From: Candidatus Gottesmanbacteria bacterium GW2011_GWC1_43_10
Lineage (GTDB): Bacteria > Patescibacteriota > Microgenomatia > UBA10105
Assembly: GCA_000995415.1 (NCBI GenBank)
Contig: LCEX01000002.1
Span: 19,232-83,231 of the forward strand
Direction of reading: 5' to 3'
DNA length: 64,000 nt
Position numbers and translations under genes: made by a program. Shown one piece after another: positions 9,311 through 51,749 of the stretch (the first letter of the stretch is position 1; every line of letters begins with the position of its first letter). The notes beneath the pieces are model-generated. The model saw only the letters and a program-made list of their open reading frames with translations. It was not told where the DNA came from and did no database searches.

Positions 9311-10723
9311 TCAATGCTTCCAAAGTTTTTCTGCAAAAGGTCTAATTTTCAACCGGTACATCCCGACGCCGCACATATATAATAATCGCAGACCATGGGA
9401 AATAGCGTGCATTTTGGATTCGCCGGTCTGCCGTTTTTTGTAATGTACCGGATACTCTTTGATCCGAAGTTGCAAATTGGCAGCGCCAAACAAAAGGTCA
9501 AAATCGCCCCAGGGTTCATTACCCAAGATTATCTTACGGGCATCTTTTTTAAACAAGGCTTTGGTACCACACAAAGTATCGGTAACTCTTTGATTTAAAA
9601 GCCAACTAAAAAATGAACTAAAAAATTTATTTCCCAATAAGTGAAAATACCGCATTGCTTGTTTTTCCATGGGGTAGACCATCCGAGTGCCGTTGACGAA
9701 ATCCGCTCTATTTTCTGCCAGCAATTCGTAAAAACAGGTGAGTTCCTGGGGAGGTACTGTCATATCAGCGTCCAAAATGAGTAGAATCTGTCCCCGAGCT
9801 CGGGCAAATCCGGCGGCCACAGCTCTAGCTTTGCCTTGATTTTTTGGAAATGTTATTAGCGTGATAGCCTTATTCTTCTTAGCAATTTTGCGCACGATTT
9901 GGTTCGTTTTATCGGTTGATCCATCATCGACGACAATAATTTCAGTTTTTTTTCCTAGACGGGGAACCTGCTTGATGCAGGGGGTTATGTTGTCAGCTTC
10001 GTTAAAGACTGGAATAATGATCGAAGTAGAATACGTCTTTGATTTTACTTTAGGTGCTTTTTTACTAACTAAATATTCGACAAAGGCCAAATGTTTCAAA
10101 GCGCCAAGTTGGGAAATATGTCTATTAACCAAATTCGATAAACCCAGGATATGTTTAGGAATCAGTGCGGCGTATCCTGACTGTTCTATGGTAAAACCAC
10201 AGATTTCAAATATGTTGATTAAGTCCGGAAGCGGTACCCAGTTGTGTGGTCCTTCCGGCATCTTCATACCGATTTTTTCAGTGAGATGTAAGACCGGTTC
10301 CCAAATAGGATTGATAGTCGAGACCACTACCTTGGTTTGTGGAGTACAGACTTGCCTGATTTGGTGTAGTGCTTGATAAATGTCTGGTAAATGATCAATC
10401 AGATCACACAGAATGACCGCGTCGTATGTTTGCCGAAGACGAAGTTGGTAAACATTTTGTTGCCAAAATGACAAATCTTGGTGTTTGGCTCGGGCCAATT
10501 TTATCATCTCGCCGCTGATATCTATTCCGTGACCAGTACGTGGAGCAACGGAAGCTAAAATGTCTCCAGTGCCACAACCGACCTCAAGTACTTTTTGGCC
10601 AGGAGAGATATGGGCAGCAAACAATTGCTTGAGTTGCAGATAATAGTACCATGACTTTTTCTTCCAGTTGTCATAGTCCTTGGCCAGCGTGTCAAAATGA
10701 TTTTTGACTGATGAAGCATCCAT
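9311..10723 (-). CDS. Fusion protein: N-terminal class I SAM-methyltransferase plus C-terminal GT2 (polyprenyl-phosphate sugar synthase / DPM1-like)
   Basis: VLEVGCGTGDI motif I in the N-terminal half. The C-terminal half has IIIPVFNEADNI...IIVVDDGSTDKT...ILDADMT and a QxxRW-like region. Confidence 0.8.
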   Translation of the reverse strand: MDASSVKNHFDTLAKDYDNWKKKSWYYYLQLKQLFAAHISPGQKVLEVGCGTGDILASVAPRTGHGIDISGEMIKLARAKHQDLSFWQQNVYQLRLRQTYDAVILCDLIDHLPDIYQALHQIRQVCTPQTKVVVSTINPIWEPVLHLTEKIGMKMPEGPHNWVPLPDLINIFEICGFTIEQSGYAALIPKHILGLSNLVNRHISQLGALKHLAFVEYLVSKKAPKVKSKTYSTSIIIPVFNEADNITPCIKQVPRLGKKTEIIVVDDGSTDKTNQIVRKIAKKNKAITLITFPKNQGKARAVAAGFARARGQILLILDADMTVPPQELTCFYELLAENRADFVNGTRMVYPMEKQAMRYFHLLGNKFFSSFFSWLLNQRVTDTLCGTKALFKKDARKIILGNEPWGDFDLLFGAANLQLRIKEYPVHYKKRQTGESKMHAISHGLRLLYMCGVGMYRLKIRPFAEKLWKH

Positions 10724-10766
10724 AATTTTTATCAGCGCGTTTTATGCTATTATACGTTACAAAAAT

Positions 10767-12758
10767 ATGCCAAAATTTTGGCACTGGTTAGTCATAATTG
10801 TCTTGTATTTTATTGTTCCGGTTTTAGAAATCAGACTGTTCATCATCTTACTAACCGTGGGTTTTGGTCTGCAAAAAACTTGGGAACTCCCAAAATGGTC
10901 AACCTATCTTTTTCTGTGGTGTATTTTTTCCTTGGGCTTCATTTTGGCACCTTATTGGCAGGTGTTTAGTTGGTGGCCGCTTAAGTACTCTTTACTATTG
11001 ATACTTGTCGGTTTAGGCAGCATATGGGCCATGATAACGGCTAAAAAAATCACTTGGAAGGGCGGGAATTTTGATATTTGGCATATTGGTTTATTGACGT
11101 TTCTGATTTATTTGACTCATTTTGGTTTGGTTGCAGCTGATATTCCTTGGCAGGGTGATGAGGAATATCATGTGAATCGATTACTCGATATCTTCTCATA
11201 CTTTGCCTTTTATGGGCAAGATTGGCACTTTTACCTATTGCGTAATCCTTTTCTTGGGATTTTATTAACCGAAGCGTTGGTTATCAGTAGCATTTTATTT
11301 TTTAAAAAAATCCGCTTGTTCCAAAAAATTTCTCGTGCCAAAAATTATTGGATAGTAGTTGCGACATTGGTATTTCCAACTTTGGCTACCACGATATTTC
11401 CATCGACAGTTTTTAGTGATCAGACTGGCATTTTTAAATTGGCTGACATTATCCGCTATCCCTACTTACAACGCTGGTGGCAGTTTGTGTTGGTCTGGCC
11501 TTTTCCAGGGAAGATTCAGCTGTATCGGGCCTTGCCGTTTTTATCGCTACTGCTTATAGCCTGGATACTCTATTTCTGGTTTGCCAAAAAACTACCACAC
11601 AAACTTTTGGCGGTCGGATATGCCTATGCATTTACAACCATCCCGCTAATGACATTTTACGGAAGTTTATTGTACTTGGAGTTGCCGATAGTATTTATCA
11701 TGTTGATTTGTTTGTTTCAAATAAAAAATATTATTAGTCAACCGTACTCGATTCTCACCAAACAGCCAGTATGGTTGTGTTTAGTTATCCTGCCTTTTTT
11801 AAAAGAGACGACCATCATGTTTTTATTACTTGTAGTTGGAGTCCGGACAATTTTTCAGCAGTTTGTACTTTCCAAAAATCTGCGCCCCAAACGTTTTTTA
11901 CTAAGCGAGTTCTTGTTTGCAGTAAGCATCTTAAGCCCAGCTATTTTATATCTATTATTTAGAAAATATTTTTCCGGATTTCGTCCTTATGGCTGGCAAT
12001 TAGTAAATATTGTGACGTTGACCAACTATCTAGTATTGGGAAAAGCACTATTTTTGCAGTTCGGATTTCTGATGATATTTGGTGCAATCGGCGTGGTTTA
12101 TCTTGTCAAAAAAGACCCGTTTGGGTTAAAGCTCCAACTTCTATTTTTAGTCGGAAGTATAATTTTTTTCTTGGGAGATGAATGGGAATTTGTAGGTTAC
12201 TCGCGCTGGAATTTATTTCTGGTTCCGGGTATATTTTACTTCGTTTACCGTTTCGTGATTTCACAAAAGAAGCCGGCGCAGATTCTTTTACTTCTGATAC
12301 TGCTTATCTCAAACTCCTATTTCAGTCCGATCTGGAGAAACAGACTGCGGAAACCAAACTGGGGTTCACCAAACACTGGTAAAGCTGAATATATATTTCC
12401 ATATGACGAGACGCTAGGGTGGTTGAGCCAGGAGAACAAAACGAAACAAATGCTTTCTACCGGTTACTTTGATGACGTGGCTTACTTTGGATTTGATTTT
12501 TACTTTCGCAAATACCAATGGTTTCCACTTCTGACACAGATTCCTTTGGCTGATACACCATATACTGCTTACGAAGAGCCGGTTTTGTTTGAACAATTAT
12601 TAGAGCATTTGCAAACGCAAAATCTGGATATTGATACGATTGTTTACCAGTCTATCTACAATATAAAGCTTGATCCAAACAAAAGATATGGGACAAAATA
12701 TACGGTAATCAAAAAGTTTTCTAACGGCTTGCACACGATCTATGTCTTAAGGTCGTGA
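10767..12758 (+). CDS. Large polytopic membrane protein, GT-C-like (DE motif)
   Basis: About 660 aa and highly hydrophobic, with DIPWQGDEEYHVNR after an early TM. The ATG at 10767 is preferred because the TTG at 10704 would overlap the divergent gene's start. TGA stop at 12756-12758. Confidence 0.5.
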   Translation: MPKFWHWLVIIVLYFIVPVLEIRLFIILLTVGFGLQKTWELPKWSTYLFLWCIFSLGFILAPYWQVFSWWPLKYSLLLILVGLGSIWAMITAKKITWKGGNFDIWHIGLLTFLIYLTHFGLVAADIPWQGDEEYHVNRLLDIFSYFAFYGQDWHFYLLRNPFLGILLTEALVISSILFFKKIRLFQKISRAKNYWIVVATLVFPTLATTIFPSTVFSDQTGIFKLADIIRYPYLQRWWQFVLVWPFPGKIQLYRALPFLSLLLIAWILYFWFAKKLPHKLLAVGYAYAFTTIPLMTFYGSLLYLELPIVFIMLICLFQIKNIISQPYSILTKQPVWLCLVILPFLKETTIMFLLLVVGVRTIFQQFVLSKNLRPKRFLLSEFLFAVSILSPAILYLLFRKYFSGFRPYGWQLVNIVTLTNYLVLGKALFLQFGFLMIFGAIGVVYLVKKDPFGLKLQLLFLVGSIIFFLGDEWEFVGYSRWNLFLVPGIFYFVYRFVISQKKPAQILLLLILLISNSYFSPIWRNRLRKPNWGSPNTGKAEYIFPYDETLGWLSQENKTKQMLSTGYFDDVAYFGFDFYFRKYQWFPLLTQIPLADTPYTAYEEPVLFEQLLEHLQTQNLDIDTIVYQSIYNIKLDPNKRYGTKYTVIKKFSNGLHTIYVLRS

Positions 12759-14392: not shown

Positions 14393-15763
14393 ATGAAAAA
14401 AAGACTCCCCAGTTCTTACAAAGACCCAAGCGGTTTCGTTTTTAAATATAAACACCGGCTTTACCGTGAAGTAAATAAAAGTTACAAACGCGATTACGAT
14501 TTTTTAATGCAAAGCGGTTTGTATAAAGCTTTAGTTGAGAAGGAGTTACTTATTTCTCATGTTGAAGTTCATTCAAAAAAACTGATGTCCGGCCAAACTT
14601 ACAAAATACTTCAGCCGGAGACGATACCATTTATTTCTTATCCTTATGAATGGTGTTTTGGTCAGTTAAAGTCTGCGGCTCTGGCGACATTAGAAATAGA
14701 ACGACTGGCTTTAACCCACGGGATGACTCTCAAAGATGCTTCAGCTTTCAATTTGCAATTTAAAGCCAACCGTCCGGTTTTGATTGATACACTGTCTTTT
14801 GAAATTTATACCCCAGGGAAACCTTGGGTAGCTTACAAACAATTTTGTGAACAGTTTTTGTTGCCGCTGGCATTGGCAGCTTATGTCGATGTGCGTTTAA
14901 TTAAGTTACTTCAGTTGTATCTTTTGGGGATTCCGTTTGACATGGCAGTGCCTTTATTGCCGCTTAGCTCGCGTCTAAATCCTGGGTTACTCCTGCACAT
15001 CTATTTCCACGGACAAAATTACACAAAAAGGGTACCCAAAAACTTATCTCCCAAACTCAAATTTTCTCAAACTGCACTTTTGGGGTTAGTCGAAAGTTTG
15101 GAATCAACAGTCAAAAGTTTGACTGTCAAAAAACGGTCTTCAAATTGGGAAAATTATTACCACAAATTCTCCTATACTTCCCGGGCTTTTGCTGCAAAAA
15201 AACAAATAATCAAAAAAATTATCCAAAAATATAAGCCCCAGACAGTTTGGGATATGGGTGCCAACACTGGTGAATTCAGTCAGTTGATAGCCGAAGACGT
15301 GGATTTTATCTTGGCGCTAGATAATGATGGTCGGGCAACGGAGAAACATTATGACAGATGTTTGGTTACTGGAAGCACTCGCGTTTTGCCCCTGATCGTG
15401 GATATCACCAACCCTACAGCTGCAATCGGATGGGCGAATCAGGAGCGTTTGTCACTAGTTGAGCGGGGGTCGGCAGAGATGGTTTTGGCTTTGGCTTTAG
15501 TGCATCATCTGGCTATCAGTTACAATCTGCCTTTTTCAGATATAGCCCGTTATTTCAGGGATTTGGGAAGGATGCTGGTAATTGAATTTGTTCCTAGGCC
15601 GGATCCTGAGATTTCGGAAATGTTGAAATTCAGAAAAGATATATTTAAAGATTATTCAAAAGAAAACTTTTCCGCTGCGTTTAAACAGTATTTTTCTATT
15701 GTTAGTATTCATCCAATTTTGGAGTCAGATCGGGTTATTTATTTAATGCGCCGAAAAAAGTGA
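14393..15763 (+). CDS. Two-domain protein with C-terminal class I SAM-methyltransferase domain
   Basis: C-terminal half VWDMGANTGEFS...ILALDND and LALALVHHL. The N-terminal ~230 aa are of unknown fold. Confidence 0.55.
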   Translation: MKKRLPSSYKDPSGFVFKYKHRLYREVNKSYKRDYDFLMQSGLYKALVEKELLISHVEVHSKKLMSGQTYKILQPETIPFISYPYEWCFGQLKSAALATLEIERLALTHGMTLKDASAFNLQFKANRPVLIDTLSFEIYTPGKPWVAYKQFCEQFLLPLALAAYVDVRLIKLLQLYLLGIPFDMAVPLLPLSSRLNPGLLLHIYFHGQNYTKRVPKNLSPKLKFSQTALLGLVESLESTVKSLTVKKRSSNWENYYHKFSYTSRAFAAKKQIIKKIIQKYKPQTVWDMGANTGEFSQLIAEDVDFILALDNDGRATEKHYDRCLVTGSTRVLPLIVDITNPTAAIGWANQERLSLVERGSAEMVLALALVHHLAISYNLPFSDIARYFRDLGRMLVIEFVPRPDPEISEMLKFRKDIFKDYSKENFSAAFKQYFSIVSIHPILESDRVIYLMRRKK

Positions 15764-17313
15764 AAAAAATACATATCTGGCACCCGTTTTTGTTTGCGAT
15801 ATTTCCGGTGGTGTTTTTATATGCACGAAATGTCAAAGAAGTGCCTATGGATCAGGTTTTTTTGCCACTCGTAGTAGTCACGGGAGCCACGCTGGTTCTA
15901 AATTGGTTGGGCAAGATTTTTGTCAAATCGACAGCCAAGCGGGCGCTCGTATTGTCGCTGTTTCTGTTGCTTTTCTTTTCTTACGGTAGCGTTTTAGATA
16001 TGGTTCGCGGTCGGAACTTAGACAATTGGTGGGTCAGCGGTTATGTGGTTTTCCCGGTGATGAGCGGATTATATCTCTTGGCTTGTTGGTGGTTGTGGCG
16101 GACGAGAAGCAAATTAAGTCAACTAACCAGATTTATGAATTTGATGGGGATGACTTTGGTTTTAATTTCACTATTGCAAATAGGCTGGTTTTGGTGGCGT
16201 TTTATAGTCAAGAGCCCGGAAACTTTAAAAAAGGCGCAATCAACCTCGATCGCTCCTTCTTCCCAAGTCAGCCCGGATATTTATTATCTGATTTTTGATC
16301 GTTATGGCCGAGACGATATTTTGCGTGAAGTTTACGATTTTGATAATCAGGAATTTACTAATTGGCTAGAGCAGCAAGGATTTTACATCGCTAGAAAGAG
16401 CTTAGCTAATTACCTGAAAACCGGACATTCCTTAGCGTCTTCATTAAACATGAAATACTTAAATTTTTTAGAAGGACAATTTGGGCGGGAGTCCCAATTT
16501 TTTTTACCACTTTACGATTTGCTGCAAAATCACCAAGTTGGCCAGTTCTTAAAAGCGCGGGGCTATACATACGTCCATCTGGGTTCTTTTTGGGCGCATA
16601 CGGCTCATAATAACTTTGCCGATATCAATTACAATAAATATCCGTTGCCTGAATTTACCATATTGCTTTATAAGACCACCGTTTTGTATCCACTGGCCTC
16701 ACGTTTAAATATTTTTGACGATCATAAACTGGAATGGGAACGAGTTCAGTTTAGTTTGCAAAAACTGGAAGACTTGGCGTCTATACCTGGGCCAAAATTT
16801 GTTTTTGCCCATATTTTGGTGCCGCACGATCCGTTTGTCTTTGCCCCTGATGGACGTTACCAAACACCAGCAGAGATTTCCAGTAAATCTTACCGTGACG
16901 GTTATGTCGGGCAGATCCAATTTATTAATTCCCAAATCAAGTCAGTAGTAAATACATTACTTAACAAATCTAAGACGGCGCCGATCATCGTCATCCAAAG
17001 CGATGAAGGTATTTTCCCGAAGAGGTATTTGGAAAGACAACTGGCCGGGAGTGACGATTTTAGTTGGGAAACTGCAAACCGTGAAGAATTGATCCAAAAA
17101 ATGGCGATCCTAAATGCTTATTACGTGCCTTATTTAGATATAAAAGATAAATTGTATCCGACCATCACACCAGTAAATTCATTCAGGCTGATTTTAAGTG
17201 AATTGTTTGCGGCTGATTTACCGCTTTTGCCTGATAAGCAATATATTTTCCGCGACGATTTGCATCCTTACACGTTTAGTGAAGTTACTAACTTAGTTCT
17301 TCAATCCAACTAA
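15760..17313 (+). CDS. Membrane-anchored alkaline-phosphatase-superfamily (sulfatase/LtaS/phosphotransferase-like) enzyme
   Basis: N-terminal ~5 TM helices, then an extracytoplasmic domain with IYYLIFDRYGRDD and HILVPHDPFVFAPDG (H-x-P-H sulfatase-type metal site). Confidence 0.5.
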   Translation: MKKIHIWHPFLFAIFPVVFLYARNVKEVPMDQVFLPLVVVTGATLVLNWLGKIFVKSTAKRALVLSLFLLLFFSYGSVLDMVRGRNLDNWWVSGYVVFPVMSGLYLLACWWLWRTRSKLSQLTRFMNLMGMTLVLISLLQIGWFWWRFIVKSPETLKKAQSTSIAPSSQVSPDIYYLIFDRYGRDDILREVYDFDNQEFTNWLEQQGFYIARKSLANYLKTGHSLASSLNMKYLNFLEGQFGRESQFFLPLYDLLQNHQVGQFLKARGYTYVHLGSFWAHTAHNNFADINYNKYPLPEFTILLYKTTVLYPLASRLNIFDDHKLEWERVQFSLQKLEDLASIPGPKFVFAHILVPHDPFVFAPDGRYQTPAEISSKSYRDGYVGQIQFINSQIKSVVNTLLNKSKTAPIIVIQSDEGIFPKRYLERQLAGSDDFSWETANREELIQKMAILNAYYVPYLDIKDKLYPTITPVNSFRLILSELFAADLPLLPDKQYIFRDDLHPYTFSEVTNLVLQSN

Positions 17314-17364: not shown

Positions 17365-20229
17365 ATGAAGTTCTTATTTAGAATCGGTTCACTACTATTA
17401 CACATAGTTGCTTTAGTTTTGGTAGGTATTTCCTTCTGGCCAGTAGCAACTTGGTATTTCAACCATCGGCCTATCCTGGGAGTAGATTTTTATAATACAG
17501 TGACTTTTGTCAGGTTCCTCAAGGAAAACTTGGAAATTTTGCCCCGGGGATATTTATATTTTTGGTTTGCTGGTTCACCCATCGATACGGTTCAAGTTTT
17601 GAGCTGGTTTTATCCGATGGCATTTGTCGCCAAGTTTTATCCACTGATTGAAACGGTGAAATTTTTTGCGCTCGCTGGTTTTGGCGGGTTACTTTTTTTC
17701 CTGTATCTTACGGCTTATCGGTTGAGTCGCAATCATTTACTGTCGGCATTGATTACGGCTATGGTTGCTATGAGCGCCAATATGTACGGTTCCCTTACCT
17801 GGGGTGGGAGTTTACCTTACTTTTTAAATCAATTGTATTTTCCACTCATGTTGTGGCTGATGGCCAGTTATTTAGCTTCTGGTAACTCACGGTGGTACTG
17901 GGCGGGGGTACTGGTTTTGGGCTTGGCTTATTTAGGTCATTTGGCCAATGCCGGGGCCTTTGTGTTTCCGGCCGCCGCCGCGCCCCTTTTCTTCGGGATG
18001 CGGGCAAGGAGGGTAAAAATCGGCCAAAGAATCGGCGAAGTCATAGTGCTTTTTCTTGGTGGTTATTTGCTGGCTTATCGGGTGACACAGGGTTTCTTAA
18101 GCGGTCTTATCGTGCATTTTTTGGAGGGCAAAATCTTAAATCCCTATGGCTTGGGTGCAACCGTGGGTAAAATCGGTATTAGTAAAGAAGGCATTTCAGT
18201 CAGCGGAGATCAGACCCTGATTACTGTAGAACGCAGCCATTTCGCGGTTTTATTCAGTGATACAAATAAGTTGTTGTTTTGGTTGATAGCAGTGGCAGTG
18301 GGAGCATTGGTCTTGGGTTTTTTGTTGGATCGACACAAAAAAAGGATTTTTTCAATACTGCCCTGGGTGATTTTGGCAGGTTATTCAGTGGTGCATGTAC
18401 TGGCTAATGCCTACGGGTTTCCGATTTTGCCACAGGCTTGGTATCGGGCTTTTTGGCATTTTCCGATTTCCCTGGGAGTGGCGATTGCAGCAAGCGCGGG
18501 TTATTTACACAGCGCATTTACTTCGCGGAGCAAATTTGGTGGACAAATAGCCTTCTCAATTATTACGCTTGCCGCAATTGGCGGACTTATTATGCTCCAA
18601 AGTGGAGGAGTTGCCCAAAATACAATCAGCCTGCTTGAACAAAAATCATCGCCTGCGAGCGCTCATCCAGAAGCAATTAATTTGGTCAGAAACCAAGCCG
18701 AACTAGATGAGTTAAAATCGAAACTTATCCCAACTTGGCTGGATATAACTAATAAAAACTACCGTTTGTATACCTCGGATGCTCAGGTAAACGTGTGGTG
18801 GAATGCCCTCTTTGATTTGCCGTTGGTTCGGGGATATTTGGATCCGCCGGTGGGCACCGGGTTCCAAGGAAACCACTTTTTACTTGATCAAGCCATAGCC
18901 GGGGATGGATTGGTGACCAACTTTAAATATAGTGAAAGTGCAGCCAGACAAATGGCTCTTTACTATATAGATTGGTATGGAGTCAGATATGCCGAAGGCG
19001 GGCATTTATCCAAATCTCCCAACAAAGGCCCATCAAGTTATTTAACTGATTTGCTGGTGCAAACGGAAGATGTCGAAATCCCTGGGGCGTATCTTTTGTA
19101 TGAAACCAAGTCAGGTAAACCAGAAGTCAGGGAAGATGTGGGACAATTTTTGAAGTATTATAAATTTACCGACCAGATAGTTTCGCCTATATTATCCGGA
19201 TCAAATGCTCCAGTCGTCGTGTGTATGTGTGATTGGGCAGCTTATGAAAGTTTGACCAAAATTTTGTCACTGCACAATCTAAATTCTAGATTTTTGGTGA
19301 CTTTGTTTGCTGATAAAAACATTGATGATTTTACTAGAGATGAACTACGTCAATTTGACGGATTGATCTTATCCAACTATCGTTACAAACAAAAAAATCG
19401 GGTCTTTACTTTGCTTACAGATTATGTCGAGGCTGGAGGCAAACTATTCATAGATACGGGAGGTGAAACCCCCGAGGGACAAAGCAATAATATTCCAGAA
19501 CTTCTGCCATTTCGCTCCACCGAGCGCCGGGGGTTAGGAAAAGAATGGGATTTGACACCAACAGCCGCAGACATATTTTCCGGCATTGATCTGACGGCAC
19601 TAGCACCCCCGGTGTTTAGTGAAGCCGAGTGGAAATTTTCCTATCCGACAAGTGATGTAAAATCTGACGCCAAAATATTACTTCGGCAAAAGGGTAAACC
19701 GATTTTGATTTCTACCAAATTTGGTCAGGGAATCGTTTTGTGGAGCGGAATGAATTTGGCTTATCACGTACAGTATTATACCAATCAAGTTGAAAGCCAA
19801 CTTTACATAAATTTGCTAAAGCAAATGTTGTCATTATCCGAACGCCCGCCGGTTTTGGGGTCAGCGCAGTTTAAAAACGCCCGACAAGTCAATTTTTCAC
19901 CCGAAGGTACTACGCGGGGAATTTTATTTAAGGAGGAGTTTTTTGACAACTGGCAAGTAAAAATAGATGGGCGTCGGGTCAAGGCCTATGCTGCTGGTCC
20001 ATCTTTCCCAGGATTTATATATGTGCCTTCGACCCAAGCTGGTCAGGTGAGTTTTACCTACAATGGCAATAGTCGCGATTATATGATTTGGTTTATGTCG
20101 AGCTTGATGATAATCATTCTTTTAGATCTATCATTTTTTCATGGAGTACTTATTGGTGTTCACATATCACACTTGGCCCAAAAGTCTCAAAAATGGATGG
20201 GTAAGTGGTGGGAAAAAGAAGAAGAATAA
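17365..20229 (+). CDS. Large (~950 aa) polytopic membrane protein, paralog 1 of an uncharacterised GT-C-like family
   Basis: N-terminal half has about 13 TM helices and the C-terminal ~480 aa are soluble. Conserved block YRLYTSDAQVNVWWNALFDLPLVRGYLDPPV lies just after the last TM. Ends in a W-rich acidic tail (WMGKWWEKEEE). Confidence 0.6.
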   Translation: MKFLFRIGSLLLHIVALVLVGISFWPVATWYFNHRPILGVDFYNTVTFVRFLKENLEILPRGYLYFWFAGSPIDTVQVLSWFYPMAFVAKFYPLIETVKFFALAGFGGLLFFLYLTAYRLSRNHLLSALITAMVAMSANMYGSLTWGGSLPYFLNQLYFPLMLWLMASYLASGNSRWYWAGVLVLGLAYLGHLANAGAFVFPAAAAPLFFGMRARRVKIGQRIGEVIVLFLGGYLLAYRVTQGFLSGLIVHFLEGKILNPYGLGATVGKIGISKEGISVSGDQTLITVERSHFAVLFSDTNKLLFWLIAVAVGALVLGFLLDRHKKRIFSILPWVILAGYSVVHVLANAYGFPILPQAWYRAFWHFPISLGVAIAASAGYLHSAFTSRSKFGGQIAFSIITLAAIGGLIMLQSGGVAQNTISLLEQKSSPASAHPEAINLVRNQAELDELKSKLIPTWLDITNKNYRLYTSDAQVNVWWNALFDLPLVRGYLDPPVGTGFQGNHFLLDQAIAGDGLVTNFKYSESAARQMALYYIDWYGVRYAEGGHLSKSPNKGPSSYLTDLLVQTEDVEIPGAYLLYETKSGKPEVREDVGQFLKYYKFTDQIVSPILSGSNAPVVVCMCDWAAYESLTKILSLHNLNSRFLVTLFADKNIDDFTRDELRQFDGLILSNYRYKQKNRVFTLLTDYVEAGGKLFIDTGGETPEGQSNNIPELLPFRSTERRGLGKEWDLTPTAADIFSGIDLTALAPPVFSEAEWKFSYPTSDVKSDAKILLRQKGKPILISTKFGQGIVLWSGMNLAYHVQYYTNQVESQLYINLLKQMLSLSERPPVLGSAQFKNARQVNFSPEGTTRGILFKEEFFDNWQVKIDGRRVKAYAAGPSFPGFIYVPSTQAGQVSFTYNGNSRDYMIWFMSSLMIIILLDLSFFHGVLIGVHISHLAQKSQKWMGKWWEKEEE

Positions 20230-20232
20230 AAG

Positions 20233-20264
20233 TAGCTTAGTTGCTTAGTTACTTAGAAGTTTAG
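20233..20264 (+). repeat. 8-nt periodic CTTAG repeat in the spacer between the tandem paralogs
   Basis: AGCTTAGT-TGCTTAGT-TACTTAGA-AGTTTAGA. Confidence 0.5.
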
Positions 20265-20277
20265 AATTTTGAAGTTA

Positions 20278-23127
20278 ATGAAAAAACTACTATTAGCCTT
20301 TTTGTTATTCGTTTTGCACCTTAGCGCCGTAAGTATCATTATTGGCGCTTTCTGGCCGATAGGCAAATGGTACTTTGATGCCAAACCCTTATGGGGGGTT
20401 GATTTTTATTACACGGCCTCCCTGGTCAATTCTCTTAAACAAAATTTCATATTTCCGGCAGCCGGTTGGTTTTCTGCCTGGTTTAGCGGTTGGCCCTGGA
20501 TCACCGGGTTTCCGATTTTGCACGCATATTTGATTGTACCATTGACTTATTTTTTCGAAGTCAATCAAGCAATCAAAATCTGGATGTTGGTAAGTTTGAT
20601 TTTATACTTTTTGGGTGCCTATGCTCTATTTTATGTTTTATCCCGCAATTGGGTAATTGCCGTATTACTTAGCCTTGGGGCCATATTTTCCGTCGGAGTA
20701 TATGGATCTCTCATGTGGGGAGGAAGTTTACCCAGTCACGCTACACAAATGTTTTTTCCGTGGGTAATCTTATTCGTCGTGCTATTTTTAACCACCAGAA
20801 AAAGAGCCGCCTTGTGGTTGGCAATTTTACTTACTGGTCTTTCGATTTGGGGGCATCCGCAGATAGCGATTGCTTATATCTATCCGACTGCAGGCTTATT
20901 GTTTCTATTTTTGGCACAAGGGTTGAAAATTTGGCACAGGCTGAAGTCTCTGATCGTTTTTGTTTTAGTTTCTTTTGTTTTTGGTCTGCCGCTGTTTTAT
21001 TTTACGCTTGGCGACGCTCTAAAAACTTTGATCGTGACCAATTCGACAGAGGTAGCTACATCTACGGCGAAAGTTGATGCAACTGCCTCTGCCGAAATTG
21101 CCGCGTTTCACGGGGCTCAACCCTGGCGAATCATTCAGGATACCAATTTGACCTTTTACTATTTATTGGCAGGGGCAACAGTTTTTTTTGTTCTGGTACT
21201 TATACTACGTCGGCAACCGAAAATGTTATTTGAATCGTTGCCGTTTCTGGTGGTAGCAATTTTTTATGTAGTGTATGTATGGATATTTGCTTATGGAATA
21301 TCAATTTATCATGGAGGTTGGTACCGGTTGTTTTGGGCTACACCAATATGGCTGGGTATGGTAGTGGCGAGCTTGTGGGGAACGGCCCAAAAACATCTTT
21401 ACGAGAAAGCAACTGGGTTTTGGAAGATTTTTCATATCTTAATTCCAGTTGCCAGCTTGGTTATTTTAGGAGCTGGTGCAATCAGCTTAAACACGACCTC
21501 GCAGGGTCTGAAAGAAAAAATCGTGGCACGGAGTAACACCTCTTCGGCTTTTCCAGATGTCTTGAATTTACGTACCGGCAGCGGGTTTACGGCGTTGACT
21601 TACGATTTGGTACCAACTTGGTTAGACGGAAACCGACGCGACTATCGCCTCTATTCTGCTGATCAAACGGTGAACATCTGGTGGAGCGCGGTTTTTGCAA
21701 TGCCTCTGGCGCGAGGTTACTTTGATCCGCCGGTAAACGCCCAAAACCGAGGTTACTTTTTCTGGCTGGACGCGGCTCTAAATAAAGCTACTAACGGTGA
21801 TGATGAACTAGTGGGAGCATTTCATTATCCGCCTGAAACAGCTTTAAATAATACCCTGTTTTTGGTGGATTGGTATGGGGTGAAGTTTTTTGAAGCCGGG
21901 CATGCCGGACCCACAGCTTACGCACCACTACCCACCAGTTTTTCGCAAAAAACCTATATGGCAAATGAGGTAGACTTGCCTTTCAACACTGAAAAATACA
22001 ATCAAGGAAATCAGGCACTTCACTTTTACGAACTTAAAGATGAGAAGGTGAGTCCGTTGCTTATTGGTACTAATGCCGTGACTTTGGGGATAGTAGCCAC
22101 GGACCAAGGGTATGAAACTGTAGTTCGGGCTCTCGCCGACAGTAATTTGGGAGTCAGCCAACTTATTCCGGTGAAATTAGGCAGCGATTTAAACCAGTTG
22201 TCAGAAAAAACACTGGCGGCGATGGACGGACTGCTACTATATGATTATCATTATTCCAACCAACAAAGTGCATTCAGACAAATAGTCGAATACGTCAAGG
22301 GCGGCAAGCAGCTATTTATAGATTCAGGGACTGAAACCAGAGAAGCCAATTCACAAAACTTGCCGGAAGTATTTCCAATTGAAACGAGTATCCGAAAGCA
22401 GCTGGGTGAGGCCTGGGATTTTACAGAGGTGGATGATGGCTTGACCCGGGGCATCGATTTGACGAGTTTTGATCCCCCGCTTTTTGACCAAACAGCCTGG
22501 AATTTTTCTTATCCGCCTGATTCGAGCGCAGTCAGAACCGGATCCAAGGTTTTATTAAAAAACCATGGGCAACCGGTTTTAATGTCGCTGCCTCTGGGGT
22601 CAGGAGAGGTGATTTGGAGCGGAATGAATCTGTCTTATCATGTCATCCGTTTCCACAACCGGCAGGAAGTAGCTTTTTACAAAAACATCATTACCAAAAT
22701 AGTTAAGCTAGGTAGTCAGGACAAGATTGAATCTGATGCTGAATTTATAAATCCCGAAACTAGGCGGATCCGAATCTCGCAAAGTAAGGGCGTTTTACTT
22801 AAGGAAGAAGCGTATCCGGGTTGGCGGGCGACTATTCGTACCGATAAAGCCAAAGAATCGGCAAAAATTTATCCTGTCGGCCCCAGTTACCCGGGGTTTA
22901 TGTATATTCGTATCCCGACCCGTTTTCAAAACATTCCCAGCGAAGTCACATTTCACTATTCTGGGTCAACCACTACCTGGGGTTTGGTAGGTGTCACGTT
23001 ATTAATTGGTATCACCATTCTTGACGAAGTAGTTCTAAAAGGAGCGATTTTGGGTCGTCTATGTAGGAAAGTTTGGCAAACAATAAATTTCGAAACTAAA
23101 AAATGGTGGGGAAAGGAAGATGAGTAA
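20278..23127 (+). CDS. Large polytopic membrane protein, paralog 2 (tandem duplicate)
   Basis: Same architecture and motifs as paralog 1 (GSLMWGGSLPS; YRLYSADQTVNIWWSAVFAMPLARGYFDPPV; tail KKWWGKEDE). Start is the ATG at 20278 (TTG at 20269 in track). Confidence 0.6.
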   Translation: MKKLLLAFLLFVLHLSAVSIIIGAFWPIGKWYFDAKPLWGVDFYYTASLVNSLKQNFIFPAAGWFSAWFSGWPWITGFPILHAYLIVPLTYFFEVNQAIKIWMLVSLILYFLGAYALFYVLSRNWVIAVLLSLGAIFSVGVYGSLMWGGSLPSHATQMFFPWVILFVVLFLTTRKRAALWLAILLTGLSIWGHPQIAIAYIYPTAGLLFLFLAQGLKIWHRLKSLIVFVLVSFVFGLPLFYFTLGDALKTLIVTNSTEVATSTAKVDATASAEIAAFHGAQPWRIIQDTNLTFYYLLAGATVFFVLVLILRRQPKMLFESLPFLVVAIFYVVYVWIFAYGISIYHGGWYRLFWATPIWLGMVVASLWGTAQKHLYEKATGFWKIFHILIPVASLVILGAGAISLNTTSQGLKEKIVARSNTSSAFPDVLNLRTGSGFTALTYDLVPTWLDGNRRDYRLYSADQTVNIWWSAVFAMPLARGYFDPPVNAQNRGYFFWLDAALNKATNGDDELVGAFHYPPETALNNTLFLVDWYGVKFFEAGHAGPTAYAPLPTSFSQKTYMANEVDLPFNTEKYNQGNQALHFYELKDEKVSPLLIGTNAVTLGIVATDQGYETVVRALADSNLGVSQLIPVKLGSDLNQLSEKTLAAMDGLLLYDYHYSNQQSAFRQIVEYVKGGKQLFIDSGTETREANSQNLPEVFPIETSIRKQLGEAWDFTEVDDGLTRGIDLTSFDPPLFDQTAWNFSYPPDSSAVRTGSKVLLKNHGQPVLMSLPLGSGEVIWSGMNLSYHVIRFHNRQEVAFYKNIITKIVKLGSQDKIESDAEFINPETRRIRISQSKGVLLKEEAYPGWRATIRTDKAKESAKIYPVGPSYPGFMYIRIPTRFQNIPSEVTFHYSGSTTTWGLVGVTLLIGITILDEVVLKGAILGRLCRKVWQTINFETKKWWGKEDE

Positions 23128-23128
23128 A

Positions 23129-25486
23129 TTAGGTAAATTTGGTTATTTTACACACCTCTATTTCAAATTTTCTACCTATCTTTTGCCAATCAAATCGGTA
23201 GGATTCGGTCAAAGCGGTCTTGGCCAATCTCTGTCGGATTGATTCTTGGGTTAATAAATTTATTACCTTCTTGGCTACCAAATCTGGTTGTTTGAGAGGA
23301 AGAGCCATAAAACCTTGTTTATATACCGAACCAAATATAGACAAATCATAACAGATGACCGGGAGTCCGGCCGCCATCGCTTCTGCAACTACCAAGCCAA
23401 ATCCTGCCTCATGATCCAGGAATAGCAACAATTTTGATGCTTTGATATATTGGTAGAGGTTGATTTGGCTCTTTAGATAACCTGTAAAAAACACATTTTT
23501 TTCTAAACCCGTGAGTTTTACTTGCCGTTGGACTTGAGTTTGGATTTCGCGAGTAGCATAACCAACAATAACTAGACGTGCTTGCGGGAGAACTCGCGTG
23601 ACTTTTTGCCAGACATCGAGGGCATCAAATATACCTTTATGCGGCTGCAATCTACCGATGACTATGGCATCAGAGCTTAACTTCCGGTAGATAGGGGTAG
23701 CCTTGATTTGATCTAAATCAACTCCGCCAAAAGCCAATCGGATGTTTTTTCGGGAGAACCCTTTTTTTGTTAGTTTCGGGATAAGTGTAGGATTGTCTAC
23801 CAACAAAAGATCAGCTTGTTTCAAAAGAAGAAGACTGAGCTGTTGCAAAAAATATGATCCAGTGTTTATCCACCACTGACCTTCACGTTGAAATGGCGTC
23901 TGGATGAAATGAAAGAACCGCGCTGTCCAGGGTTGGATATTCGTTTGATGATAAAGGAAAGCCGGGAGTGTATCCGATATCATGTCCGTACTGGTATGGA
24001 GGATGTCAAAAGACGGTAACTTTAGTAAATAAAAATAGGCGAGAAAACTGCGGATTAAATACGCTATAAATAGACGAAACGGTCGGTCTTGATTGTCAAA
24101 CCAAGTTGTGGGGAGGATGACGAAGCGCAAGTAAGGACTTGCGATATGGACTTTTTGCCAATGGTATAGTCCATGTTGCGGTAGAATTACGGTTATCCTA
24201 ACCTTAGCTGATAAATGTTTTATAGTCTGCATGAGTACTTGGTCTCCGCCGCCGATGGCTTGGGTTGAGACGAAAGCGTTGGCTAAACATACAATTTTCG
24301 TTTGTGTTAAATATACCGAAATAGATTTCAAAACAGTTTGAGCGTGGGTTTCCCATGAATATTTGCGGGCTGTGGCAGCAGCTTTTTTTCCCATAGTAAG
24401 GGCTTCAGTTGGATGTTGATACAAATACTTGATGTATTTAACAAATTGATTAGTTTTCCCATCGTCAGGGAAAAACCCTTCCCGGCCGTGAGTAAACAAT
24501 TCGGTCACTCCAGATCCTCGGGGAATGATGATGGGCAATCCATAAGCGGCCATTTCCAAGCCGGACATGCCGAAAGCTTCAAAGTTGGGATGGACCCAGA
24601 CAAAGCTTTTTTGAGCAATTTCCTGTAAGTCAGTTTCCGCCTGTGCGGAAAGCAACGAAATTCTTTTTGCCAAACCTTGTGCTTTTACTTGTGCTAAAAA
24701 ATCCGCGCGGTCCTCAATATTTGTCCAACTGCCGGCTAAAAGGATTTTCAACCGGGGGATTTTTCGGGCGAGGGTCATAAATAAAAAAGGATTTTTGGCC
24801 GATTCCCACCTGGTAAAACCCAAGATATATCGGGATTGCTTGCGGGGCGCAATATCTAAAATGGCGCATCCGGGATAAATGATTAAGGGATCAATCTGGT
24901 AATGAGTTTTTATAAATTTTTGATGGACCCGGGATGAGGTAGCTACCAAAGCTGCGGTAAGTAAAAAATCGCGTTCGTATTTTTTGATCAGAGATTTGAT
25001 AAATGGAGATAACCAGCGTATTGGACTTGAACCATAAACTTTTTCCCAGATATAAAGCATCGGGTCCCAAATAAAAGCTAAGTAAGGGATCTTGAGTCGT
25101 AAGCTGACCGCCCGTGCAGTGATACACGTGGTCGTCCCGTGGCTCACAATAAAATCCAGATTTTTAAGTATTTGATATCGCCCGGCAAAAAATGGGTTTA
25201 ACAGATGGAGGGTAGTCAAAAAAGAAAAGTAAGGGATGCGCCAAGCTCTTTTGAAGGGCCAGGGATTGAAGTCAGATAGGTAAATTACTTCCAAGCCCGT
25301 TGATAAATCCTGATACTGATAACTTATGTCCAGCTTGACCAGAACGAATAGTCTGACGTCATGCCCCAGCTTTTTCAGGTATTGAGCTTCTTGGATGGCT
25401 GATTTTTGGACTCCACCGGGTACAAGCTGGTCGACCAAAATGCCAATTTTATATTTTTTCATAGTTTGGCATAAATATCTCCCCAC
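23129..25486 (-). CDS. Tandem double-GT4 glycosyltransferase (two GT-B modules in one 785-aa polypeptide)
   Basis: Module 1 N-terminus KIGILVDQLVPGGVQK. Module 2 runs from about residue 395 (KIVCLANAFVSTQAIGGGDQ) to the C-terminal E-x7-E GFGLVVAEAMAAGLPVICYD. Confidence 0.7.
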   Translation of the reverse strand: MGRYLCQTMKKYKIGILVDQLVPGGVQKSAIQEAQYLKKLGHDVRLFVLVKLDISYQYQDLSTGLEVIYLSDFNPWPFKRAWRIPYFSFLTTLHLLNPFFAGRYQILKNLDFIVSHGTTTCITARAVSLRLKIPYLAFIWDPMLYIWEKVYGSSPIRWLSPFIKSLIKKYERDFLLTAALVATSSRVHQKFIKTHYQIDPLIIYPGCAILDIAPRKQSRYILGFTRWESAKNPFLFMTLARKIPRLKILLAGSWTNIEDRADFLAQVKAQGLAKRISLLSAQAETDLQEIAQKSFVWVHPNFEAFGMSGLEMAAYGLPIIIPRGSGVTELFTHGREGFFPDDGKTNQFVKYIKYLYQHPTEALTMGKKAAATARKYSWETHAQTVLKSISVYLTQTKIVCLANAFVSTQAIGGGDQVLMQTIKHLSAKVRITVILPQHGLYHWQKVHIASPYLRFVILPTTWFDNQDRPFRLFIAYLIRSFLAYFYLLKLPSFDILHTSTDMISDTLPAFLYHQTNIQPWTARFFHFIQTPFQREGQWWINTGSYFLQQLSLLLLKQADLLLVDNPTLIPKLTKKGFSRKNIRLAFGGVDLDQIKATPIYRKLSSDAIVIGRLQPHKGIFDALDVWQKVTRVLPQARLVIVGYATREIQTQVQRQVKLTGLEKNVFFTGYLKSQINLYQYIKASKLLLFLDHEAGFGLVVAEAMAAGLPVICYDLSIFGSVYKQGFMALPLKQPDLVAKKVINLLTQESIRQRLAKTALTESYRFDWQKIGRKFEIEVCKITKFT

Positions 25487-30653: not shown

Positions 30654-31414
30654 TTTTTGGTAATCACAAAATGACAGCTGGGTAGATTTTTTAATTCTGG
30701 TAAAAATTTAACAACTCGTCCATAATTAACCGGCAAAGTCCATACTCCTTTAAAAATGATTTTAAGTTGGGCTTGGATCAGTAGGTTTTCCAATCTTTTC
30801 CAGGTCAGCGGTTGTTCGATTGGCTGCTGTTGTAAACTAATGATGTGGGTGAGTAGGTTGTAAACGATTTGAATAGCGGGAAAAGAGGGCAGTTTGTGAA
30901 CTGTTAATATTTGGATTTTTGACACGCGGGCCATTTCCGATATCGCGAGTTCTGGATCGGCAAAATGTTCCAGACTACCGGCACAAATTGCTAGATCAAA
31001 AGCATCGTCAACAAATGGTAGATGCGCCGCGTCTGCCTGGACTAAAAACTTGGCGCCGCGGTTTTTACTTTTACGTAAAGCATTATAAGCAAATTCGACG
31101 CCGACTGTTTCCGAAACCCGACTCTCCAATTCGCCGTCGCCGGAAGCCACGTCGATGGTAGTGTTGCCGCGTGCAAAACAGGCTAAGACCTCATAAACCC
31201 CATCCGTCGGCACAGCGAATTTCCGGCGGTGTAACTTTTCGTAAAGTCGGCGTGAGGTTTCGGAAACAGGATGGGGATTGTAAAGCAACTTCCAGACACC
31301 TTGTTTGCAACTAAACCCAAAGTCGCAGACAGCACAGTGTTTACGAGTAAGTTTCAGTTTGGTTTTACATCTAGGGCAAGCAAGGGAATCCAGAAATTGA
31401 GTTTGCGTCAGCAT
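30650..31414 (-). CDS. SAM-methyltransferase with N-terminal Trm112-like zinc ribbon
   Basis: CPRCKTKL...CAVCDF ribbon, then IDVASGDGEL and a methyltransferase-type-11 core. Confidence 0.7.
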   Translation of the reverse strand: MLTQTQFLDSLACPRCKTKLKLTRKHCAVCDFGFSCKQGVWKLLYNPHPVSETSRRLYEKLHRRKFAVPTDGVYEVLACFARGNTTIDVASGDGELESRVSETVGVEFAYNALRKSKNRGAKFLVQADAAHLPFVDDAFDLAICAGSLEHFADPELAISEMARVSKIQILTVHKLPSFPAIQIVYNLLTHIISLQQQPIEQPLTWKRLENLLIQAQLKIIFKGVWTLPVNYGRVVKFLPELKNLPSCHFVITKK

Positions 31415-32292
31415 AAGTGTTTGCGGGCGATAAAAGTCTCATCAAGATGTTGTAAGTTCCACCAGGCACCTTTAAGCAGTGGAATAAATCTGCCATCGCC
31501 TAAAAAAAGTCGCAGCGGTACGATGAGTAAAAATTGGATTAAAAAGATACTTAAGACATTTACCCACGGTAAATTTTTTAAGACAAAACGAAACTTGTTT
31601 TTGTACCATTGATAATATTTTTCCGGTAAATTTTTGTTCATTGTTTTGGTGACTCCGTGCCAAAAGATGGCTTGAGGTAGATAGACGATTTGTAAACCGC
31701 TTTTTTTGATTCTTAATGCTAAGTCATAATCTTCAAAATAAATCAGCGAAAACCCCGGATCCAACAAACCTGCTTGCGTCAAAGCCTTTCGCGAAGTCAG
31801 TAAAGCACAACCTTGTAACCAGTCCGGCGATTTGACAAGCTCCGGGTTTGGAGCCGAATAAATATGTCCGGTCCAACGGTTCATCATAAACCCGGCGGTC
31901 GAAAGTTTTGCGTGTTGATCCTTACTAAAAATCTTACCCCCAATCAACCCCACTCGCGGATGGTTGACTAGATAGCGCACCAATATTTGAAGTGAGTTGT
32001 TTTCAAACATCAAGTCATCGTTGCCGATGAAAATATATTCACCTTTGGCTTGAGCGATACCCAAATTGACAGCTTTAGCAAAACCTAAATTGACTGAATT
32101 TAAAATCAGTTTTACGTGGGGATATTTGCGTTTGATCAAAAGAGGTGAACCATCTGCAGAATGATTATCTACGACAATAACTTCCAATTTTGTTTTGGGA
32201 TAGTTAAGCCGAGCAATCGAAGATAGGCAAGCTAATGGTTCATTGCCACCATTAGCATTGGGAAAAATGATAGAAATAGTTGGTTCGCTCAT
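31408..32292 (-). CDS. GT2 family glycosyltransferase
   Basis: ISIIFPNANGG...VIVVDNHSADGS...IGNDD. Confidence 0.8.
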   Translation of the reverse strand: MSEPTISIIFPNANGGNEPLACLSSIARLNYPKTKLEVIVVDNHSADGSPLLIKRKYPHVKLILNSVNLGFAKAVNLGIAQAKGEYIFIGNDDLMFENNSLQILVRYLVNHPRVGLIGGKIFSKDQHAKLSTAGFMMNRWTGHIYSAPNPELVKSPDWLQGCALLTSRKALTQAGLLDPGFSLIYFEDYDLALRIKKSGLQIVYLPQAIFWHGVTKTMNKNLPEKYYQWYKNKFRFVLKNLPWVNVLSIFLIQFLLIVPLRLFLGDGRFIPLLKGAWWNLQHLDETFIARKHLC

Positions 32293-32307
32293 TTATCATC
32301 TATTAAG

Positions 32308-44775: not shown

Positions 44776-44987
44776 TCTTCAAATTTTCTAAAAGCCTGTT
44801 TAGAAACCCGCAAAATTAGTCTAATTTTATACTTGCGTTTAAAGCAAAAAATCCCGATGTGTCAAGCCAGTACACTTTCGATGTGTTCGCCTATGCAATT
44901 TATCCTCATCTATCACTTGGTAACTGGATAAAAACTCCGGATTTGATATACACTAATGTTATACCCATGTCAAAAGGGGATTTTCGT

Positions 44988-49386: not shown

Positions 49387-49488
49387 GCATGTACTATAAT
49401 ACCATTTGTTTTCATTGTCAATGAAAACTTTAGGTAGGTAGTTTTCAGTATCGTTGAAAGCTTTTAAAGCAATAAAAATACTGTAATT

Positions 49489-51705: not shown

Positions 51706-51749
51706 TACTTTTTTACTAAAAATGTCTGTGCATAGGTTAAAATACCAGT

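Follow-up and report, generated by a model that had tools for sequence, protein, structure and literature searches.

What is the role of three large, related membrane proteins encoded in the middle of a glycan-biosynthesis cluster of a patescibacterium? We have studied a stretch of 64,000 nucleotides (the window) from contig LCEX01000002.1 of Candidatus Gottesmanbacteria bacterium GW2011_GWC1_43_10. A first-pass annotation of this DNA had located three open reading frames (ORFs) and regarded their products as paralogous members of an undescribed family of glycosyltransferase C (GT-C) proteins, with an architecture like that of the oligosaccharyltransferases (OSTs). All three ORFs were found exactly where they had been placed, and we refer to their products as A, B and C. 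With a probability of roughly 0.7, we consider these to be extracytoplasmic GT-C glycosyltransferases that transfer a polyprenyl-phosphate-linked sugar onto a cell-wall polymer or a surface protein.

Three paralogous genes

Gene A occupies positions 17365-20229 of the forward strand and encodes 954 amino acids from an ATG start. Gene B begins 39 nt downstream of the end of A on the same strand (20269-23127), giving a protein of 952 amino acids from a TTG codon, or of 949 from the ATG at 20278. Gene C lies on the reverse strand (34140-36869) and encodes 909 amino acids from a GTG codon, or 900 from the ATG at 36842; the latter start is that of the database annotation, in which the protein has 900 amino acids and begins MDLSNL. 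In a database search A was a 100% match to 'hypothetical protein UV04_C0002G0033' from a Candidatus Gottesmanbacteria metagenome-assembled genome (MAG), and C matched a hypothetical protein from a sister MAG at 100% identity across 99% of its own length. The lineage is that of the Patescibacteria group, Microgenomates group.

A and B are 32% identical over their full length (E = 3e-160). A and C share 24% identity over 505 residues in the C-terminal part (E = 3e-39), and 26% over 231 residues in the N-terminal part (E = 1e-15). On sequence comparison this similarity is far beyond chance, and the three proteins are true paralogues, as had been claimed.

Predicted structure of paralogue A

A model of A was built using AlphaFold2 on an alignment of 35 sequences. 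The mean predicted local distance difference test (pLDDT) score is 89.4 and the predicted template modelling (pTM) score is 0.87. Residues 1-413 (17365-18603, forward strand) are placed in a polytopic membrane module of about 11 transmembrane (TM) helices with the N terminus inside. The helices have the arrangement of the GT-C fold, and this region is the predicted GT-C catalytic module. The helices of the model were counted by reading them against the positive-inside rule, giving about 11 in place of the 13 or so N-terminal TM helices put forward initially; the TM segments are less clear in a crude hydropathy scan than in the model. Basic loops at residues 211-218 (GMRARRVK), 322-327 (DRHKKR) and 387-390 (SRSK) are read as cytoplasmic, which places D41, the WGGSLP sequence, H192 and R361 on the outside.

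Comparison of the model with known structures returned GT-C enzymes, and bears out the GT-C interpretation at the level of the predicted fold. The top structural match was Pmt4 (score 18.8), followed by STT3B (17.7), Pmt2 (16.2), AftD and PglB (each 14.8), DPY19 (13.6), AftA (13.0), ALG9 (12.8), AglB (12.7) and ArnT (11.1). PglB and AglB, for which a comparison had been suggested, are among the structural neighbors of the model. A Foldseek search with the same model was in agreement, giving AftD, yeast STT3 and AglB at E ~1e-6.

The membrane module is followed by an ectodomain of about 490 residues in three parts. Closest to the membrane is a mostly helical subdomain (residues 414-560; 18604-19044, forward strand) that contains R467, W478-W479, P486, G490-Y491 and D536. 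Next is an alpha/beta domain (residues ~605-825; 19177-19839, forward strand) with a GATase1/ThuA/GIFT-like fold lacking a conserved Cys nucleophile, and then an all-beta, sandwich-like C-terminal domain (residues ~830-900, with model strands in 832-899; 19852-20064, forward strand). The Cys-His-Glu triad of a class I glutamine amidotransferase is absent from the alpha/beta domain. Since no conserved Cys was found on comparing A, B and C or in the family alignment, the possibility that this domain is an active amidotransferase was ruled out. The chain ends in a C-terminal TM anchor and a cytoplasmic tail (residues 903-954; 20071-20226, forward strand; tail end KWMGKWWEKEEE). The model has helices at 903-924, corresponding to the anchor, and at 931-953, within the tail of about 30 residues. 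The anchor did not appear in the first-pass description.

Conserved residues on the predicted outer face

Conservation was counted over 130 full-length family members, aligned down to ~20% identity and numbered as in A. Directly after TM1, where the first extracytoplasmic loop (EL1) begins, position 41 is Asp in 123 of the 130 sequences. A, B, C and the whole 35-sequence alignment have this residue without exception, and its codon in A is at 17485-17487 on the forward strand. GT-C enzymes carry a catalytic or donor-binding Asp right after TM1, and D41 is the corresponding conserved acidic residue here; it is a candidate for either function, and by this analogy a catalytic role appears the natural one to propose. 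It is also the sole conserved acidic position (≥75% D or E) within residues 1-413. A G-V-D-F-Y motif had been described for this early loop. It is present in A and B (the Asp codon of B is at 20401-20403, forward strand), but C reads GGDYY (Asp codon at 36693-36695, reverse strand), so that only the Gly and the Asp are invariant; the essential part of the description, an Asp-containing motif in the early loop, is upheld by a near-invariant Asp.

Other positions of the membrane module are similarly well kept, namely G39 (128/130), G148 (126/130), H192 (124/130), R361 (Arg in 114 and Lys in 6 of the 130) and W364 (121/130). R361 and W364 belong to an extracytoplasmic loop between TM9 and TM10 (residues 350-364, containing W359-Y-R361-x-F-W364; 18412-18456, forward strand) that is modeled with low confidence, the mean pLDDT being 57 for residues 351-360. 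The loop is presumably mobile in the protein that the model represents. By analogy it can be likened to the substrate-gated loops in PglB and ArnT, and it may have a role in binding phosphate.

The second group of conserved residues lies in the membrane-proximal subdomain, comprising R467 (129/130), W478 (112/130), W479 (113/130), P486 (125/130), G490 (123/130), Y491 (117/130) and D536 (128/130). Those from R467 to Y491 fall within a block that spans residues 466-491 of A (YRLYTSDAQVNVWWNALFDLPLVRGY; 18760-18837, forward strand), 459-484 of B (YRLYSADQTVNIWWSAVFAMPLARGY; 21643-21720, forward strand) and 461-486 of C (YRLDSNDATLTHWWNLISDIPVTRGY; 35412-35489, reverse strand). In the model of A it begins 53 residues beyond the last N-terminal TM helix (390-413), in good agreement with the ~50 residues initially estimated. 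The block had been called strictly conserved. It is indeed present in all three proteins, but B has Ala in place of an Asp (FAMP), and the regular expression offered for the motif does not match B. The contexts of the Trp pair in the three paralogues are VWWNALFD, IWWSAVFA and HWWNLISD. R467 and D536 are better conserved than the Trp pair, which indicates that the membrane-proximal subdomain is probably part of the active site or acceptor site.

Further conserved positions in the ectodomain are G691, W756, G795, N797, E810 and W863, and within the beta-sandwich domain G852, K856, E857, W863, G878 and Y886. The majority of conserved positions lie in the ectodomain, and GIFT/GATase1-like domains are known in the non-catalytic subunits OST48 and IFT52. 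Both observations would suit proteins that are catalytically inactive scaffolds of GT-C fold, comparable to PIG-U/GAB1 in the glycosylphosphatidylinositol (GPI) transamidase, or carbohydrate-binding or export accessories, with an ectodomain that organizes the assembly of the wall or S-layer. However, the near-invariant Asp of EL1 and the His, Arg and Trp residues of the outer face are kept down to ~20% pairwise identity. Conservation of this kind characterizes an active site, and we regard an inactive scaffold as very improbable.

The cytoplasmic tails are also conserved, within each subfamily. Trp-rich acidic tails had been ascribed to all three proteins; those of A (20137-20226, forward strand; KWWEKEEE) and B (23041-23124, forward strand; KKWWGKEDE) fit this description, but that of C (34143-34244, reverse strand) ends in TDEHLNY, and the C type terminates in [DE]-E-H-x-x-Y. 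A tail pattern of WW with K/R and acidic residues within the next few positions, or of [KR]-WW, occurs in 85 of the 130 family members. The tails may act as docking peptides.

Relationship to PF10131

The only sequence family matched by A and its relatives is PF10131 (PTPS_related), a member of the GT-C clan CL0111 (PMC7801869). It was matched by 29 of the 35 close relatives at E ≤ 0.01, the best at E = 1.3e-15; among more remote relatives the scores are 22-50 bits, or there is no match. A check against PTPS_related had been proposed and was well chosen, since PF10131 is the family that A, B and C border. By the same token the family can hardly be called undescribed, as most of its close members match an entry already filed in the GT-C clan. 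The conclusion that emerges is that A, B and C probably belong to a peripheral, Microgenomates-rich branch at the edge of the uncharacterized PF10131, and so to a new divergent group of a catalogued family.

Individual members match either the TM part or the C-terminal part of PF10131. Residues 651-801 of A align to positions 479-621 of the profile, its C-terminal part; residues 74-373 of the relative P0084 align to positions 4-302, the N-terminal TM part, and residues 70-219 of P0164 to positions 3-149. The architecture is thus collinear with the Pfam model. From the HHpred ranges given in PMC7801869, the PF10131 model appears to begin after TM1 and EL1, in which case the conserved Asp41 would fall outside it. 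Because the members of PF10131 are uncharacterized, membership explains little of the function. The archaeal Dol-P-Man mannosyltransferase AglS might also be of the PF10131 type, a link on which nothing here is built.

An NCBIfam scan of A, B and C gave no match. A profile was run exhaustively against 1.84 billion cluster representatives and returned 1528 relatives at E ≤ 1e-3, of which 587 representatives of 50%-identity clusters at E ≤ 1e-30, and the family is therefore large. With two exceptions the named members are all called 'hypothetical protein'. One, a distant relative of C from Patescibacteria, is a '6-pyruvoyl-tetrahydropterin synthase-related protein', and the other is a 'response regulator' from Chloroflexota, named for a fused receiver domain. 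Literature searches turned up one informative paper on PF10131/PTPS_related, PMC7801869, and nothing specific on glycosylation in the candidate phyla radiation.

In the Chloroflexota pair P0102/P0105 (MBI4318638.1, MBI4318639.1), one relative has a response-regulator receiver domain fused at its N terminus, and a 2159-amino acid relative is encoded on the same contig under the next accession number. This suggests that variants controlled by phosphorylation exist outside the candidate phyla.

Comparison with known GT-C enzymes

We compared the three proteins with the established GT-C systems. None of A, B and C matched the Pfam STT3 model at E ≤ 1, and nor did any of the 35 homologues. In STT3, PglB and AglB (Pfam STT3, GT66) there are 13 TM helices against about 11 in A, and the ectodomain fold differs from the GATase1-like and beta-sandwich domains of A, which has in addition the extra C-terminal TM anchor. 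The conserved block had been proposed as the counterpart of the WWDYG motif of these enzymes. That motif is absent; judged by sequence, the Trp pair is followed by N/S-x-hydrophobic and not by D-Y-G. OSTs hold a divalent cation at the diphosphate by means of several acidic residues. The corresponding acidic set in EL1, EL2 and EL5 was not found in the family, where D41 alone is conserved. Membership of an OST-like (STT3) family is therefore not sustained.

These comparisons bear on a rival explanation, in which one or more of A, B and C would be an en-bloc transferase, polymerase or ligase that uses a flipped undecaprenyl-diphosphate-linked oligosaccharide. The glycan would be passed to protein (OST-like N- or O-glycosylation of surface or S-layer proteins) or to a wall polymer, or its repeat units would be polymerized, filling the Wzy/WaaL/OST role that is missing from the cluster. 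The closest structural neighbors include STT3B, PglB and AglB, and a highly conserved WW block lies in the membrane-proximal ectodomain at about the distance from the last TM helix expressed above, both consistent with such an activity. Against this, the STT3 model gives no match, the block reads WW-[NS]-x-hydrophobic, the membrane module has a single conserved acidic residue where OSTs have several, and the top structural match, Pmt4, is an enzyme that uses a monophosphate donor. The gene content of the cluster bears further on this explanation, and is considered below.

YfhO consists of an N-terminal polytopic GT-C module and a large extracellular domain with a presumed role in binding the acceptor polymer, and its genes are located in envelope-glycan loci. 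The overall design of A is similar. A resemblance to YfhO had been suggested, but A, B and C had no match to PF09586 at E ≤ 1, nor had the 35 homologues; one distant family member has a 40-residue C-terminal match (E = 5.8e-4) that is below the cut-off. In the CsbB/GtcA/YfhO system of teichoic-acid glycosylation in Firmicutes, YfhO uses a C55-phosphate-monosaccharide donor as part of a multi-component system (PMC8035078). Multi-component transmembrane glycosylation of this kind combines a GT-A synthase, a flippase and a GT-C transferase (PMC8035078). By analogy we have adopted such a system as a working model. The pairing of a CsbB-type GT2 with a GtrA-type flippase was not observed, there being no adjacent CsbB- or GtrB-like GT2.

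A narrower form of the favored reading, with a protein as acceptor and a polyprenyl-phosphate donor, is that the proteins are PMT-type protein O-glycosyltransferases, in which A and B would form a heterodimer like yeast Pmt1-Pmt2 and add a single sugar to Ser/Thr-rich proteins. PMTs have about 11 TM helices, the number predicted for A; the A-B tandem is conserved, and a Ser/Thr-rich protein of 1054 amino acids is encoded nearby. Yet neither the PMT nor the PMT_2 Pfam model matched A, B or C, and three separate PMT_2 proteins are already present in the cluster. We aligned the family profile with seven PMT_2 proteins of the same clusters using hhalign, and obtained a probability of 16% over TM4-6 only; as a means of aligning the catalytic Asp this was dropped. 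Loop 1 of the clusters' PMT_2 proteins contains an invariant D-E pair, where only one Asp is present in A, B and C. Furthermore, Pmt1-Pmt2 and Pmt4 (GT39) contain MIR domains, which are lacking from the ectodomain of A, B and C with its GATase1-like and beta-sandwich domains, and the Ser/Thr-rich protein was found in none of 34 related loci. Overall a PMT-type function seems distinctly unlikely.

The glycan cluster

The three genes had been placed in a large glycan-biosynthesis cluster, and the gene content confirms this. A single cluster of about 45 kb extends over positions ~700-44800 and holds a Wzx-type flippase (707-2176). Its GT2 domains number six, of which five are encoded by stand-alone genes and the sixth is joined to a methyltransferase, and its five GT4 genes include a double GT4. 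There are also three GT-C proteins of the PMT_2 type, nine or so methyltransferase domains and two carbamoyltransferases, together with a DegT protein, a hexapeptide acyltransferase, a GFO/IDH oxidoreductase and an RmlD-like reductase. Among the scanned ORFs of at least 120 amino acids we recognized no Wzy, WaaL, LCP, STT3 or initiating phosphoglycosyltransferase.

A Wzx-type flippase together with many cytoplasmic GT2 and GT4 enzymes is typical of the assembly of undecaprenyl-diphosphate-linked oligosaccharide, and this, with the absence of a recognizable Wzy, WaaL, LCP or STT3 and the presence of the Ser/Thr-rich, surface-type protein beside the cluster, favors en-bloc transfer. However, the missing polymerase or ligase could instead be a polytopic membrane protein of 684 (probably 663) amino acids at 10704-12758 on the forward strand. 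It has an invariant G-D-E-x-x-H loop motif (here GDEEYH), no Pfam or NCBIfam match and only two distant homologues; an AlphaFold2 model built from three sequences was unusable (pLDDT 39). This protein could alternatively be a further GT-C enzyme. On balance we find an en-bloc, polymerase or ligase role for A, B or C unlikely, though deserving of attention.

The Ser/Thr/Gly-rich protein itself (1054 amino acids; 44859-48023, forward strand) lies at the edge of the cluster, has Ig-like and CarboxypepD_reg-like matches and hydrophobic segments, and is a candidate glycoprotein acceptor.

Two genes might supply a polyprenyl-phosphate-linked donor. The first encodes a GT2 at 40122-40916 (reverse strand) for which the best NCBIfam matches are PgfS, ArnC and PpgS, far below cut-off; it is a candidate polyprenyl-phosphate sugar donor synthase. 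The second, at 9311-10723 (reverse strand), encodes a fusion of a class I S-adenosylmethionine methyltransferase with a GT2, the latter best matching AglJ, PgfS, ArnC and a dolichyl-phosphate hexose transferase, all below cut-off. Its product may be a methylated or otherwise modified polyprenyl-phosphate sugar donor. DPM1-like GT2s had been reported next to the three genes; the synthase-like GT2s are these two, at a distance, and the GT2 genes that do adjoin C (31408-33126) look like ordinary GT2s.

Upstream of A on the forward strand are genes for a 456-amino acid protein of no assigned function (14393-15763) and for a 517-amino acid membrane protein (15760-17313). The latter has N-terminal TM helices and a sulfatase/alkaline-phosphatase-like C-terminal region (Pfam Sulfatase E = 6.6e-4, below cut-off), with no NCBIfam match, and may be an LtaS/EptA-like transferase. 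These two genes overlap by 4 nt (15760-15763), and 51 nt separate the second from A. In view of the overlap and short spacing on the same strand, both genes with A and B apparently form one operon. On the other side, a double GT4 protein of 785 amino acids (23129-25486, reverse strand) is encoded convergently with B, with a single base between the stop codons.

A defence-like island adjoins the glycan cluster at 48091-52855. It encodes an AAA_14/DUF4143 ATPase (48091-49512, reverse strand), a TOTE-type archaeo-eukaryotic primase fused to a ResIII/DEAD helicase (49489-51705; PF22548, E = 4.9e-67), a 240-amino acid ORF of no assigned family and a DUF6155 protein.

Conservation of the gene order

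Each of the three proteins is closer to proteins elsewhere than to its paralogues. Identity is 54% between A and P0004, and B shares 54% with P0041 and 46% with P0031; for C the values are 44-49%, with P0182, P0183, P0106 and P0117. A contig from Woesebacteria carries adjacent orthologues of A and B with a C-type gene nearby. By these sequence relationships A, B and C are separate, ancient orthologous subfamilies, and such an ancient divergence argues for three non-redundant activities.

The arrangement was examined by tblastn over 34 distinct related loci, from lineages that include Woese-, Levy-, Davies-, Curtiss-, Chisholm- and Gottesmanbacteria. A is followed by B on one strand in 16 of the 34, and in 9 of those 16 a C gene is on the opposite strand within 10 kb; most of the remaining loci carry a tandem pair from other subfamilies. 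The most frequent neighbors are a double GT4 and a GT2 (each in 14/34 loci), then a methyltransferase and a PMT_2 (each in 12/34), Wzx (9/34), DegT (8/34) and carbamoyltransferases (7/34). As the order recurs and the neighbors vary, A, B and C form a conserved core inside variable surface-glycan clusters. The double GT4, being among the most frequent neighbors, probably works together with A, B and C.

A number of the loci (L006-L009, L012, L014, L017, L019, L021, L022, L025, L027 and L032-L035) are among records titled 'uncultured Gammaproteobacteria' or 'Pseudomonadales'. These MAG records carry Microgenomates-type copies, several in the A-B-C arrangement, and their titles are probably placeholders or taxonomically wrong.

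A conserved A-B pair accompanied by C brings to mind EmbA-EmbB and EmbC (PMC7341804), and also Pmt1-Pmt2; a heteromer of A and B is an idea suggested by these analogies. One could extend it to an Emb-like machine, with an A-B heterodimer and a C homodimer at the core of a Microgenomates-specific wall-glycopolymer pathway. The proteins would then stand in for the Wzy, WaaL, LCP and OST functions, which are not recognizable in genomes as reduced as these; the GATase1/GIFT-like domain, as a fused part, would by analogy play the role of OST48 beside STT3; and the conserved tails (KWWEKEEE for types A and B, DEHxxY for type C) would serve as docking sites for cytoplasmic partners, likened to the AcpM reported bound to Emb and AftD. 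Nevertheless, EmbC/EmbA/EmbB and AftD (GT53 and relatives) have no sequence similarity to A, B and C and differ from A in the number of TM helices and in the folds of their ectodomains. As a joint proposal, requiring all of its parts, we regard it as doubtful, with little probability attached.

A proposed mechanism

In the favored reading, sugar transfer by A, B and C, the membrane module of about 11 TM helices would bind a sugar linked to polyprenyl phosphate on the outer side of the cytoplasmic membrane. Asp41, where EL1 begins, would act in catalysis, and His192, Arg361 in its flexible loop and Arg467 would bind the phosphate. The sugar would be moved to an acceptor outside the cytoplasm, which would be a glycopolymer of the cell wall or a glycoprotein of the surface; the large C-terminal ectodomain would hold this acceptor through the helical R467/WW/D536 subdomain, the GATase1/GIFT-like domain and the beta-sandwich, while the C-terminal TM helix would tie the ectodomain back to the membrane. 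The ~45-kb cluster would specify a glycan with heavy methylation and carbamoylation, on which the three paralogues might each serve a different step or linkage. The catalysis and residue roles are put forward conditionally, and transfer from a lipid-phosphate donor on the non-cytoplasmic side is suggested by the topology and the cluster context. A monosaccharide on a monophosphate is somewhat favored as the donor, in view of the single conserved acidic residue, the lack of an OST-like metal site and Pmt4 as the top structural match.

A number of results weigh against this reading. The match of A to PF10131 is only 22.7 bits (E = 4e-5), below the gathering cut-off of 26.4; B, C and the whole C subfamily have no match to PF10131, and the function of that family is listed as unknown (PMC7801869). 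A search of all sequences in the PDB with the 35-sequence profile found no GT-C protein, returning only 2gk3 (E = 0.29) and a spurious match to HIG1. The assignment to GT-C draws on a predicted structure and on the clan membership of a bordering family, and we infer the type of donor and the acceptor entirely. The low hhalign probability with PMT_2 proteins counts here also, as does the EL1 motif, with its single Asp and neither a DxD nor a DE pair. Finally, both candidate donor synthases are 3-7 kb from the nearest of A, B and C, not adjacent to them, and recur in just 1-2 of the 34 related loci, and no GtrA-type flippase was found among the scanned ORFs of at least 120 amino acids. These points are included in the probability given at the outset.

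Significance

There is no new fold and no new principle in A, B and C, and the functional statements made here are predictions. The proteins are plausible enzymes of surface glycosylation rather than a new kind of protein. Patescibacteria are tiny episymbionts for which the biochemistry of the envelope is essentially unknown, and this family offers a concrete entry point, being large, with three subfamilies in conserved gene order across Microgenomates, and lying in the middle of a ~45-kb glycan cluster. D41, H192, R361, R467, W478/W479 and D536 are the residues that we single out as targets for mutagenesis. The characterization of one member would give PF10131 its first function.

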